Shown here: in pieces, positions 6,366 to 9,750 of the stretch
Position numbering within the stretch: the stretch's first letter is position 1
Layout: the number at the start of each line of letters is the position of its first letter
Source of the DNA: a virus
Lineage: Duplodnaviria > Heunggongvirae > Uroviricota > Caudoviricetes
Reading direction: 5' to 3' (one strand)
Virus record (IMG/VR): IMGVR_UViG_2541047860_000008
DNA length: 9,750 nucleotides
Program-made: the position numbers and the translations under genes
Notes under the pieces: generated by a model
What the model was told of the DNA's origin: nothing
The model's input: the letters and a program-made list of their open reading frames with translations, nothing else
Database searches by the model: none

Positions 6366-6845
6366 ATGATGCTCGCGTTAGGTATGTTTGTTTTTATGCG
6401 CCAGACGCTGCCACACCAGACCATGCAGCGTGAATCAGATTATCGCTGGCCGTCAAATTCCCGTATCGGTAAACGGGATGCCTACCAGTTTCTCGGTGTG
6501 GGTGAGGAAAACATCACGCTTGCCGGTGTGCTTTATCCCGAACTGACCGGCGGAAAGCTGACGATGACCACGCTCAGGCTGATGGCAGATGAAGGCCGGG
6601 CGTGGCCGTTGCTGGATGGCACCGGCATGATTTACGGCATGTATGTCATCAGCAGGGTGAGTGAAACAGGGAGTATTTTCTTTGCAGACGGCACACCCCG
6701 AAAAATTGATTTTACGCTGTCGCTCACCCGCGTTGATGAATCACTGGCCGCGCTTTATGGCGATATCGGTAAACAGGCGGAATCGCTCATCGGTAAGGCT
6801 GGCAGTATGGCGACTAAATTCACGGGTATGACGGGGGTGGGATAA
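6366..6845 (+). CDS. U: Tail protein gpU (tail completion/terminator-like), 159 aa
   Basis: AGGAGG at 6350-6355 and ATG at 6366. The 159-aa product equals P2 U in length, and its stop overlaps the D start (TAATG at 6843-6847). Confidence 0.9.
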   Translation: MMLALGMFVFMRQTLPHQTMQRESDYRWPSNSRIGKRDAYQFLGVGEENITLAGVLYPELTGGKLTMTTLRLMADEGRAWPLLDGTGMIYGMYVISRVSETGSIFFADGTPRKIDFTLSLTRVDESLAALYGDIGKQAESLIGKAGSMATKFTGMTGVG

Positions 6846-8008
6846 TGCCGGATGCGTTGACATTTGATGCAGGCAGTACGCTGACGCCGGATTACATGCT
6901 GATGCTCGACAGCAGGGATATTACCGGCAATATCAGCGACCGTCTGATGAGCATGACCCTGACGGATAACCGGGGCTTTGAGGCTGACCAGCTTGATATT
7001 GAACTGAACGATGCCGACGGGCAGGTCGGGCTGCCGGTTCGTGGCGCTGTCCTGACGGTGTATATCGGCTGGAAAGGTTTTGCCCTGGTATGTAAAGGGA
7101 AATTCACCGTTGATGAGGTTGAACACCGGGGCGCACCGGATGTGGTCACCATCCGCGCCCGGAGTGCAGATTTTCGCGGGACGCTCAATTCCCGCCGTGA
7201 AGGCTCCTGGCATGACACCACGCTCGGTGCGATTGTTGAGGCGATTGCCTCCCGTAACAGGCTGGAAGCCAGTGTCGCTCCGTCACTGGCCGGAATTAAA
7301 ATCCCGCACATCGACCAGTCGCAGGAGTCTGATGCTAAATTCCTGACCCGTCTTGCTGAACGCAACGGCGGTGAGGTGTCGGTAAAAATGGGAAAACTGC
7401 TGTTTCTCAAAGCGGGGCAGGGGGTGACGGCCAGCGGTAAAAAAATCCCGCAGATTACCATCACCCGCAGCGACGGCGACCGCCATCATTTTGCGATTGC
7501 TGACCGTGGAGCCTATACCGGCGTAACGGCAAAGTGGTTACACACCAAAGACCCGAAGCCGCAAAAGCAGAAGGTAAAACTGAAACGCAAAAAGAAAGAG
7601 AAACACCTGCGCGCACTGGAGCACCCGAAAGCGAAACCGGTCAGGCAGAAGAAAGCGCCAAAAGTACCGGAAGCCCGCGAAGGTGAATACATGGCCGGTG
7701 AGGCTGATAACGTTTTTGCCCTGACCACGGTGTATGCCACGAAAGCACAGGCCATGCGCGCCGCTCAGGCGAAGTGGGATAAGCTGCAACGGGGTGTAGC
7801 GGAGTTCTCCATCAGCCTGGCTACTGGTCGGGCTGATATTTACACGGAAACACCGGTTAAAGTGTCAGGCTTTAAGCGCGTCATAGACGAGCAGGACTGG
7901 ACAATCACTAAGGTGACACATTTTCTGAATAATAGCGGCTTCACGACGTCCTTAGAGCTTGAGGTCAGGCTTTCTGATGTGGAGTACGAAACAGAAGATG
8001 ATGAGTGA
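6845..8008 (+). CDS. D: Tail protein gpD (Phage_GPD family, baseplate hub-like), 387 aa
   Basis: The 387-aa product equals P2 D in length and occupies the U-D-ogr position. It contains a Lys-rich segment at about aa 235-281. Confidence 0.9.
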   Translation: MPDALTFDAGSTLTPDYMLMLDSRDITGNISDRLMSMTLTDNRGFEADQLDIELNDADGQVGLPVRGAVLTVYIGWKGFALVCKGKFTVDEVEHRGAPDVVTIRARSADFRGTLNSRREGSWHDTTLGAIVEAIASRNRLEASVAPSLAGIKIPHIDQSQESDAKFLTRLAERNGGEVSVKMGKLLFLKAGQGVTASGKKIPQITITRSDGDRHHFAIADRGAYTGVTAKWLHTKDPKPQKQKVKLKRKKKEKHLRALEHPKAKPVRQKKAPKVPEAREGEYMAGEADNVFALTTVYATKAQAMRAAQAKWDKLQRGVAEFSISLATGRADIYTETPVKVSGFKRVIDEQDWTITKVTHFLNNSGFTTSLELEVRLSDVEYETEDDE

Positions 8009-8089: not shown

Positions 8090-8308
8090 ATGTTTCATTG
8101 TCCTTTATGCCAGCATGCCGCACATGCGCGTACAAGCCGCTATATCACTGACACGACAAAAGAGCGTTATCACCAGTGTCAGAACGTGAATTGCAGCGCC
8201 ACGTTCATCACTTATGAGTCGGTACAGCGATACATCGTGAAGCCGGGAGAAGTCCACGCCGTAAAACCGCACCCGTTGCCGTCAGGGCAGCAAATTATGT
8301 GGATGTAA
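8090..8308 (+). CDS. ogr: Late gene transcriptional activator Ogr (zinc-finger), 72 aa
   Basis: From the ATG at 8090 the product is MFHCPLCQHAAHARTSRYITDTTKERYHQCQNVNCSATFITYESVQRYIVKPGEVHAVKPHPLPSGQQIMWM, which I recognise as near-identical to P2 Ogr. It carries the C-X2-C-X22-C-X4-C zinc finger (C4, C7, C30, C35), with a GAGGTG RBS about 10 nt upstream. The ORF-track start at 8027 adds 21 residues that are not part of Ogr. Confidence 0.92.
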   Translation: MFHCPLCQHAAHARTSRYITDTTKERYHQCQNVNCSATFITYESVQRYIVKPGEVHAVKPHPLPSGQQIMWM

Positions 8309-8380
8309 TTACAAACAGAAAGCCCCTCAGTCGTGTACTGCACCCATTTTGTTGGACGATGAAATGGAATAGCCCCTAAT

Positions 8381-8902
8381 ATGTCAAAGCCAAAATACCC
8401 TTTTGAAAAGCGCCTTGAAGTCGTGAATCACTACTTCACAACTGATGATGGTTACAGGATCATCTCGGCACGTTTTGGTGTCCCCCGAACCCAGGTCAGG
8501 ACATGGGTTGCCCTCTATGAAAAACATGGAGAAAAAGGTTTAATTCCCAAACCTAAAGGCGTTAGTGCTGATCCAGAGTTGCGTATTAAGGTCGTGAAAG
8601 CTGTGATCGAGCAGCACATGTCCCTTAATCAGGCTGCTGCTCACTTTATGCTTGCTGGTAGTGGTTCTGTAGCCAGGTGGCTGAAGGTCTATGAAGAGCG
8701 CGGAGAAGCTGGTTTACGCGCGCTCAAGATTGGCACCAAAAGAAACATTGCAATATCAGTTGATCCAGAAAAAGCGGCATCAGCATTGGAGCTGTCAAAA
8801 GACCGACGCATTGAGGATCTTGAAAGGCAAGTTCGATTTCTTGAAACGCGGCTTATGTATCTAAAAAAGCTGAAAGCCTTAGCTCATCCCACGAAAAAGT
8901 GA
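8381..8902 (+). CDS. insJ: IS150-like transposase OrfA (InsJ-like, HTH DNA-binding), 173 aa
   Basis: ATG at 8381 just inside the left end. The 173-aa product (MSKPKYPFEKRLEVVNHYFTTDDGYRIISARFGVPRTQVRTWVALYEKHGEKGL...) has helix-turn-helix character and a C-terminal leucine-zipper-like region, typical of IS3-family OrfA. Confidence 0.9.
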   Translation: MSKPKYPFEKRLEVVNHYFTTDDGYRIISARFGVPRTQVRTWVALYEKHGEKGLIPKPKGVSADPELRIKVVKAVIEQHMSLNQAAAHFMLAGSGSVARWLKVYEERGEAGLRALKIGTKRNIAISVDPEKAASALELSKDRRIEDLERQVRFLETRLMYLKKLKALAHPTKK

Positions 8903-8923
8903 AAGTACTCAACGAGCTAAGGC
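8863..8923 (+). other. IS150-type programmed -1 frameshift signal: slippery heptamer plus downstream stem-loop
   Basis: A AAA AAG (8863-8869) lies in the OrfA zero frame (codons CTA AAA AAG). Six nt downstream, GCCTTAGCTC (8876-8885) pairs perfectly with GAGCTAAGGC (8914-8923), giving a 10-bp stem with a 28-nt loop. The -1 frame continues into OrfB. Confidence 0.8.
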
Positions 8924-9750
8924 AGTTTTATCCTCTTGATGAGCTTCTCAGGGCTGCGGAGATACCGCGCAGTACGTTTTATTATCATCTAAAGGCTCTC
9001 AGCAAGCCTGACAAGTATGCGGACGTTAAAAAGCGTATTAGTGAGATTTATCACGAGAATAGAGGCCGATACGGATACCGTAGGGTAACGCTGTCTCTTC
9101 ATCGAGAAGGGAAACAGATTAACCATAAAGCTGTTCAGCGCCTGATGGGAACCCTCTCACTTAAAGCAGCGATTAAGGTCAAGCGATACCGCTCTTACAG
9201 AGGAGAGGTAGGGCAAACCGCCCCTAATGTTCTCCAAAGAGATTTCAAGGCTACGCGGCCAAACGAGAAGTGGGTTACCGATGTTACTGAATTTGCAGTC
9301 AATGGGCGCAAGCTGTATTTGTCTCCAGTAATAGATCTCTTCAACAACGAAGTTATTTCTTACAGCCTTTCGGAAAGACCAGTGATGAACATGGTTGAGA
9401 ATATGCTCGATCAGGCATTCAAAAAGCTTAATCCTCACGAGCATCCTGTTCTGCACTCTGACCAGGGATGGCAGTATCGTATGAGAAGATATCAAAATAT
9501 CCTTAAAGAACATGGTATTAAACAAAGCATGTCCAGAAAAGGCAATTGTCTGGATAATGCTGTGGTGGAGTGTTTCTTTGGAACCTTAAAGTCGGAGTGT
9601 TTTTATCTTGATGAGTTCAGTAATATAAGCGAACTGAAGGATGCTGTTACGGAATATATTGAATACTACAACAGCAGAAGAATTAGCCTGAAATTAAAAG
9701 GTCTGACTCCAATTGAATATCGGAATCAGACCTATATGCCTCGTGTTTAA
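8899..9750 (+). CDS. insK: IS150-like transposase OrfB (InsK-like, DDE/RNase H-fold catalytic domain), 283 aa; expressed mainly as an OrfAB fusion by -1 frameshift
   Basis: The -1 frame relative to OrfA is open from the slip site to the TAA at 9748-9750. The product contains ...KWVTDVTEF...HSDQGWQY...[14 protein letters not shown]..., the D, D and E regions of an IS3-family DDE transposase. The ORF-track start at 8899 is a GTG. Confidence 0.9.

Follow-up and report, generated by a model that had tools for sequence, protein, structure and literature searches.

IS150 in the loop of the terminator-like hairpin downstream of ogr in a P2-like Escherichia coli prophage

The stretch of DNA analyzed here (the window; 9,750 nucleotides, IMG/VR record IMGVR_UViG_2541047860_000008) ends inside an insertion sequence that begins just after ogr, the last gene of a P2-like late region. 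Two questions arise from this arrangement: what did the insertion interrupt, and was its position chosen by the element? According to the original prediction, which was based on the window alone, an IS150-like element might have split either the ogr terminator or the att-proximal sequences. We are highly confident that the locus is a complete, canonical IS150 in the loop of the hairpin closing the FI-FII-E-T-U-D-ogr late region, that the target was duplicated, and that the attachment site is intact 0.8 kb further on, at a position that was probably chosen by the transposase.

RESULTS

A canonical IS150 at the end of a P2-like late region

The window is a 100% substring, without a single mismatch, of E. 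coli scaffold KE701070.1 (L006 3157-12906; assembly GCA_000459435.1), which was retrieved through the gpD protein encoded in the window and in which the right end of IS150 and its flank were read. Pfam matches and annotation identify the window as the right-hand part of the late region of a P2-like prophage, with tail fiber and assembly genes followed by FI (sheath), FII (tube), E, T, U, D, and ogr (Table 1). In both the window and matching loci, this order, ending in a zinc-finger activator, is that of the right end of a P2-like (Peduovirus) genome. The scaffold was examined leftward as far as gene O, the early region being located over 10 kb to the left of the window, and also contains O, N, M, L, X, lysis genes, R, S, V, W, J, I, H, and G; apart from an assembly gap within the tail fiber gene, O through ogr are full-length ORFs. 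The host element is a P2-like prophage in the region of the cpxQ sRNA, between cpxP and fieF of E. coli. One match (H35) considered as a cpxQ-site prophage was dropped, as it is a pflB-site prophage.

The stop codon of ogr (TAA, 8306-8308) is separated by a 25-nt stub (8309-8333) from the left end of IS150, TGTACTGCACCC, which starts at 8334. The copy in the scaffold is 1,443 bp long and has 0 mismatches over its entire length to a K-12-derivative copy (L057), bearing out the prediction of an IS150-like element with its left end at this position. Its ends (TGTACTG.../...CAGTACA) form imperfect inverted repeats of the type 5'-TG...CA-3', and the length, identity, inverted repeats, orfA-orfB frameshift, and 3- to 4-bp duplication are all those of IS150 (IS3 family). 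The window ends with the orfB stop codon; the right end of the element lies 26 bp further, where KE701070.1 has the matching right inverted repeat that had been expected beyond the window. As such, this is a full-length canonical IS150 in a P2-like prophage, a known and ordinary event, with the junction already annotated in 74 RefSeq genomes.

Since KE701070.1 is a draft scaffold with a 155-bp gap of Ns immediately ahead of the window, the element might have been placed here by scaffolding, as a misassembled IS150 repeat. However, both junctions are contiguous, the duplication is clean, both halves of the interrupted hairpin are present, and the same architecture recurs in 74 finished genomes and one IMG/VR contig, such that an artifact is extremely improbable.

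TABLE 1 Features of the ogr-IS150 region (window positions, except where L006 coordinates of the scaffold are given)
Feature	Position	Strand	Evidence or comment
P2 gpD-like late gene, final tail gene ahead of ogr	6845..8008	+	Pfam Phage_GPD, E = 2e-26; annotation in matching genomes, "phage late control D family protein"
ogr, late-gene activator, 72 aa	8090..8308	+	Pfam Ogr_Delta, E = 1e-21; same protein in RefSeq is OgrK, WP_000468308.1
5' arm of ogr-distal hairpin, AAACAGAAAGCCCCTC, now parted from 3' arm	8313..8328	+	Perfect 16-nt partner GAGGGGCTTTCTGTTT just beyond IS150 in KE701070.1
Left copy of 4-bp duplication GTCG (loop bases GTC plus first G of 3' arm)	8330..8333	+	Right junction compared with IS-free allele
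IS150, first 1,417 of 1,443 bp	8334..9750	+	Identical to scaffold copy; projected end at window-equivalent 9776
IS150 left inverted repeat	8334..8364	+	31-nt terminal inverted repeat, 71% complementary to right end
IS150 orfA, 173 aa, HTH DNA-binding protein	8381..8902	+	Pfam HTH_28, E = 4e-23
A AAA AAG programmed -1 frameshift heptamer	8863..8869	+	IS position 530; RefSeq transposase note "programmed frameshift"
IS150 orfB frame, DDE integrase-type catalytic part of OrfAB transposase	8899..9750	+	Pfam rve (E = 3e-29), rve_2, HTH_21
213-aa ORF (642 bp) between hairpin and att, outside the window	L006 13052-13693		115-bp spacer after hairpin

IS150 splits the hairpin downstream of ogr

In KE701070.1, the two 16-nt arms of the ogr-distal hairpin are 100% complementary and 1,451 nt apart. 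The left junction reads CAGTCG/TGTACTG... and the right junction ...CAGTACA/GTCGAGGGGC (in longer form, ...GGGGTCAGTACA/GTCGAGGGGCTTTCTGTTTTGGGG), and the corresponding sequence of the IS-free allele is CCCCTCAGTCGAGGGGC. The hairpin is uninterrupted, AAACAGAAAGCCCCTCAGTCGAGGGGCTTTCTGTTT, in six alleles (L003, L005, L007, L010, L043, and L045) in which this prophage occupies the same chromosomal site without IS150. IS150 sits in the 4-nt AGTC loop of this perfect 16-bp hairpin, and GTCG is duplicated.

The stub had been taken for the first half of a hairpin whose partner was missing before the IS, and the partner arm is indeed found directly past the right end of the element; the comparison with IS-free alleles and the DNA beyond the window recovered both the remainder of the hairpin and the att core. 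Two details of the prediction needed amendment. The string quoted for the stub had one extra leading A, which belongs to the stop codon, the half hairpin itself being real. The target duplication was expected to be TCG: it exists, but in the genome of the window it is the 4-bp GTCG, the 3-bp form occurring in the M217 lineage and in IMG/VR contig L012 (see below).

The intact allele folds with -32.5 kcal/mol (z = -6), as against z = +0.4 for the window sequence, where the interrupted halves have no significant structure. With its perfect 16-bp stem and 4-nt loop, the intact allele has the GC-rich stem-loop of a Rho-independent terminator. The 3' tail of the hairpin, UUUCUGUUUUGGGG, falls partly within the stem and has a poor U-tract (GCUUUCUGUUUUGGGG), and a consensus terminator scan did not call the ogr-distal hairpin of the cpxQ-type lineage. 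P2-type alleles have a clean U6 tail, GCUUUUUUG, where the cpxQ-type lineage instead has UUUCUGUUUU. The ogr-distal hairpin is a homologue of the P2 ogr terminator, and its strength as a terminator in the cpxQ-type lineage is putative.

The attachment site lies intact beyond the element

The prediction that IS150 might have split att-proximal sequences, locking the prophage in place, started from the premise that the att arms directly follow ogr. This premise is correct for P2 itself and for P2-type prophages integrated elsewhere, such as the related prophages at pflB (L002, L004, L008, and L009), in which the arm repeats occur about 5 nt after the ogr terminator and GATGTGGTCAATGTGTGGAC follows at once. 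It fails for the cpxQ-site prophage, in which the 642-bp ORF and its flanks intervene between the hairpin and att. There, two P2-type Int arm repeats, ATGTGGACG and ATGTGGACA, which match the consensus tgTGGaCa (PMC3448106), are situated 11 bp apart at L006 13708-13727 and start 776 bp past IS150. Identity to the empty K-12 site begins at L006 13776 with GACACCATCCC, inside cpxQ and 844 bp past IS150; the shared stretch, GACACCATCCCTGTCTTCCCCCACATG...TGTGGGGGTTTTTTTT, is the first in common with the empty intergenic region between cpxP and fieF in K-12 and corresponds to the last 44 nt (3' end) of cpxQ, an annotated sRNA upstream of fieF. Together, the arm repeats and the core shared with the empty site mark attR, which is intact and outside the window, and over the 850 bp from the 3' arm of the hairpin into the att core there is at most 1 difference from IS-free alleles.

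Of the two targets proposed, then, only the hairpin was split, with its halves on either side of IS150. An insertion into att-proximal sequences is very improbable given the intact repeats and core, and the proposed impairment of excision is unsupported. An intact att core upstream of position 8309 had been named as the finding that would speak against the idea; the att was found further downstream instead. Excision would be unaffected through att, though the prophage is 1.45 kb longer.

The protein encoded between the hairpin and att matches the PADLOC profile PD-T4-10B (E = 1e-34), the toxin component of an abortive-infection system made up of two genes (PMC9519451). Because the distance from the ogr stop to the start of the ORF is only 140 bp in IS-free alleles, there is no room for the overlapping antitoxin gene PD-T4-10A, and the toxin-antitoxin pair of PD-T4-10 is incomplete here. 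No sequenced phage of the collection searched had the 213-aa ORF at the ogr-att position.

The same loop was probably hit twice

An IS150 in the same loop and orientation occurs in an M217-type lineage, represented by 73 complete genomes when searched with a 1,851-bp query and by 74 when searched with a right-junction query (e.g., strain M217). These 74 IS-bearing complete genomes are probably one clone. In the M217 type (L001 and L012), the left junction is the same as in the window, but the right flank begins TCGAGGGG, denoting a 3-bp duplication of TCG. The 4-bp right junction of the window had no identical match in complete genomes, the best reaching 99.0% over an 80-bp junction query. Within IMG/VR, there was a single match to IS150 in this loop in the direct orientation (L012, of the 3-bp type) and none in the opposite orientation. 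Only a remnant of the M217-type prophage is left, truncated by an IS66-family element immediately left of the sheath gene, and excision is moot in those genomes for reasons that have nothing to do with IS150.

A single ancestral insertion, later moved between prophage haplotypes by recombination and altered by a 1-bp indel to give the 3- and 4-bp duplications, would require no recurrent targeting. P2-like prophages are known to be mosaics, the two IS150 copies are identical (0 differences in 1,443 bp), and the downstream flanks differ by 1 base in 850 bp (3 in 1,100 in a longer comparison), all of which such a history would explain. Yet the right junctions diverge exactly at the IS boundary, GTCG versus TCG, the outcome expected if the target had been cut with staggers of 4 and 3 nt. 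Moreover, the 1,522 bp upstream of IS150 in KE701070.1 show 0 mismatches to the six IS-free alleles and 40 to the M217 type, some of them only 68 bp from the IS, and an exact loss of the IS from every IS-free allele is implausible. We regard a single insertion as unlikely. Because the M217 type differs both in its duplication, which is 3 bp, and in its flanking haplotype, the simplest reading is that there were probably two independent insertions, both in this loop and with the same orientation, one made with a 4-nt and the other with a 3-nt stagger.

IS150 sites share a target pattern

We compared this position with other IS150 targets, drawn from GTDB species representatives, from complete E. 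coli genomes picked solely for their differing loci, and from the hokC site of REL606, where IS150 insertions arose de novo in the laboratory; insertions at hokC, hokE, and ldr have been reported (PMC5419217). Sites were aligned from IRL to IRR, and four (L060, L063, L057, and L064) were left out because they have no clean duplication, being rearranged or having a different left end. Among the 14 non-ogr sites, an R occupies position +3 in 13, a G occupies +4 in 13 and +5 in all 14, a C occupies +6 in 12, and an A occupies -1 in 11. The common pattern comprises an (A)AAGCCCC block 12 to 24 nt left of the duplication, usually an A before the duplication, and RGGC two bases after it; the ogr hairpin fits this arrangement of N3-NN-RGGC downstream of a GCCCC arm, with only 4 nt between arm and duplication, as opposed to 12 to 24 nt at the other sites. 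Including ogr, the pattern is derived from 15 sites, many of which are homologous hok loci.

The majority of the sites are located just 5' of type I toxin genes (hokA, hokB, hokC, hokE, ibsA, and another ibs), and the others fall in gltL, a dsbA/dsbL-type gene, and cirA. The two ibs sites, GGGAAAGCCCCTCCCGAA[GAA]GGGGGCC and GGGAAAGCCTCTCCCGGA[GAA]GAGGGCTTT (duplications bracketed), are short hairpins resembling that of ogr, CAGAAAGCCCCTCA[GTCG]AGGGGCTTTCTG. When a weight matrix was built from the other sites only, the ogr position ranked 20th among 42,286 in a 21-kb IS-free locus, and 38th when 8 unrelated sites were used. The de novo laboratory insertions at hokC (REL606 position 16,972) coincide to the nucleotide with natural copies at hok loci from other genera, and trg/mokB is an IS150 hot spot even in mutation accumulation lines (PMC5289635). 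The REL606 position given for trg/mokB (1,272,468; PMC5419217) was not used, as it falls in chaB in NC_012967.1.

Among complete genomes, the cpxQ-type hairpin is intact in 87 and interrupted in 74. P2-type ogr hairpins, whose core is identical, are intact in 1,424 complete genomes, and IS150 was present at the site in none of these, suggesting that the site is not very hot and only mildly preferred, or else that insertions have been purged from active phages; a chimeric query representing IS150 in P2-type ogr terminators (GCTTTTTTGTCG) likewise found none among 5,426 complete genomes. A metagenome scan with the IS right end plus AGGGGCTTT returned only other elements in unrelated contigs, and L034, the single full match inspected, lacks an IS150 left end upstream; the resulting pattern, being biased by selection, was set aside.

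These observations suggest how the element came to its present position. The transposase would probably have chosen the ogr hairpin rather than landing at random: other IS150 copies, in fixed orientation, are found immediately ahead of an RGGC that serves as the 3' arm in an interrupted inverted repeat of GCCCC and GGGGC, of which ogr would be a perfect example, and which would have been hit at least twice in this hairpin. More broadly, IS150 may not insert near-randomly but recognize a target that is asymmetric and resembles a hairpin, (A)AAGCCCC - 4 to 24 nt - A - [N3-4] - NN - RGGC, and enter it in one orientation. The hok, ibs, and ldr loci and the P2 ogr hairpins would then be mutational hot spots, and parallel hok and ldr insertions in evolution experiments would be largely target driven rather than selected; we consider this general proposal evenly balanced between right and wrong. 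The literature searched contained reports of hot spots and parallel insertions but no published target consensus for IS150, and that the pattern is both real as stated and unreported we judge to be about an even call.

Likely effects on transcription

With the hairpin split, a terminator scan found no terminator-like site on the + strand between ogr and the copy of the cpxQ terminator at attR. Transcripts of ogr or of the late operon could run on into orfA and orfB and further, making the predicted read-through from ogr into IS150 plausible. In addition, the 3' end of IS150 has an outward-facing promoter, and transcription was significantly raised in 12 of 55 regions downstream of the element in the LTEE (PMC11101190). 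At this locus, the promoter would now face the PD-T4-10B-like gene, from which just one half of the hairpin would separate it.

DISCUSSION

For the window itself, the insertion is of little import, as it amounts to a canonical IS in an ordinary P2-like prophage whose att is untouched. Its interest lies in three other respects. The att model is corrected for the cpxQ-site prophage family, in which a PD-T4-10B-like gene is situated between ogr and att and the core is in the cpxQ sRNA. The placement of an outward IS150 promoter directly 5' of a toxin-like gene, coupled with loss of the insulating hairpin, is a possible regulatory change. And a phage terminator joins a consistent pattern of IS150 targets, which, should it hold in large sets of de novo insertions, would alter how parallel IS150 insertions are read.

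The locus can be set against several known systems. It has in common with the ogr-attP-int region of phage P2 the gene order D-ogr-hairpin and tgTGGaCa arm repeats on the ogr side of the core, but the cpxQ-site prophage has the 213-aa PD-T4-10B-like gene between the hairpin and the arm repeats, and its core lies in cpxQ, which is no classical P2 site.

The IS150 hot spots at hok/sok, ldr, and ibs (PMC5289635; PMC5419217) resemble the ogr insertion in orientation, with IRL toward the (A)AAGCCCC arm, and in having the duplication 2 nt before RGGC. They differ in that the spacer at ogr is a 4-nt loop between perfectly paired arms, and that ogr is the end of a prophage operon and not a toxin-antitoxin locus. 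Other IS3-family elements also occupy the loops of short chromosomal palindromes: IS1397 and ISKpn1 insert into those of REP/palindromic units (as cited in PMC1525189), and one of the two IS150 copies in CFT073 is REP associated (PMC1525189). A recurrent motif was found for IS150, although the ogr hairpin is not a REP or BIME unit and a transposase-based specificity of IS150 is putative. Compared with the K-12 IS150 beside hokA (insJ/insK), the ogr copy has the same 1,443 bp at 100% identity, the same orfA, orfB, and A AAA AAG heptamer, the same TG...CA repeats, and a 3- to 4-bp duplication; the two differ only in location, the loop of a phage terminator-like hairpin as opposed to a type I toxin locus or coding gene.

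Insertion sites of IS150

Type I toxin genes lie directly downstream of most randomly sampled IS150 copies, and at these loci the element occupies one fixed nucleotide in a single orientation. De novo insertions arising in the laboratory are at the identical nucleotide. Parallel IS150 insertions at toxin loci have been interpreted in the published literature as the result of selection for toxin-antitoxin inactivation.

The classic K-12 copy of IS150 beside hokA (L057 and L064) is oriented opposite to the common direction and has no target duplication. At hokA of strain AH21B060 (L065), IS150 is in the usual orientation and is bounded by an AAG duplication, a comparison that makes the inverted K-12 arrangement, which lacks the duplication, look rearranged.

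In an unrelated family of contigs from gut metagenomes (L034, L035, and L037 to L039), a 14-nt IS150-type right end, TTGGGGTCAGTACA, adjoins AGGGGCTTTTTTGAACG, a flank for which the search pattern itself selected. This flank resembles a terminator's 3' half. The right end probably belongs to a related insertion sequence of another host; L034, the single full hit that was inspected, has no IS150 left end upstream.

Organization of the prophage and its right end

Features of the source scaffold (L006) and of other loci
Feature	Location	Remarks
N gap, 155 bp	L006 3002-3156	Inside tail-fibre gene, directly before window start
213-aa ORF	L006 13052-13693 (window-equivalent about 9896-10537, outside window)	Between ogr hairpin and attR
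Shared core	L006 13776-13819; K-12 locus L011 1345-1388	Identity to empty site
Region left of sheath gene, E. coli M217	L001 1-2747	ISEc22 and recombinase/invertase gene
IS150 upstream of hokA, hokB, hokC, hokE, ibsA, and another ibs	L059, L062, L058, L065, L066, L016, L017, L020; REL606 L040 273-275	

Positions 1 to 177 of the window have copies upstream, at 132-bp offsets, in related loci (83 to 88% identity); these repeats, arranged in tandem within the fibre gene, are the probable cause of the gap in the L006 assembly. The M217 lineage, with 74 complete genomes, carries a remnant prophage in which all sequence left of FI has been replaced by a frameshifted IS66-family element, ISEc22, and a recombinase/invertase gene; the ogr hairpin of this remnant holds IS150, with a 3-bp duplication.

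This family of P2-like prophages integrates inside the cpxQ sRNA, within the cpxP 3' UTR. Identity to the empty site starts 14 nt into annotated cpxQ, so attR (the right attachment site) retains only the 3' 44 nt of cpxQ and its terminator, whose loop differs from that of the empty site by a single A/C difference.

The 213-aa ORF matches the PADLOC profile PD-T4-10_B (E = 1e-34), the toxin component of a toxin-antitoxin-like abortive-infection system. It had no Pfam or PHROG matches, it lacks a PD-T4-10A partner, and at the megablast level it was absent from all sequenced phages of the collection. The position between ogr and the attachment site may constitute a third cargo slot of P2-like phages.
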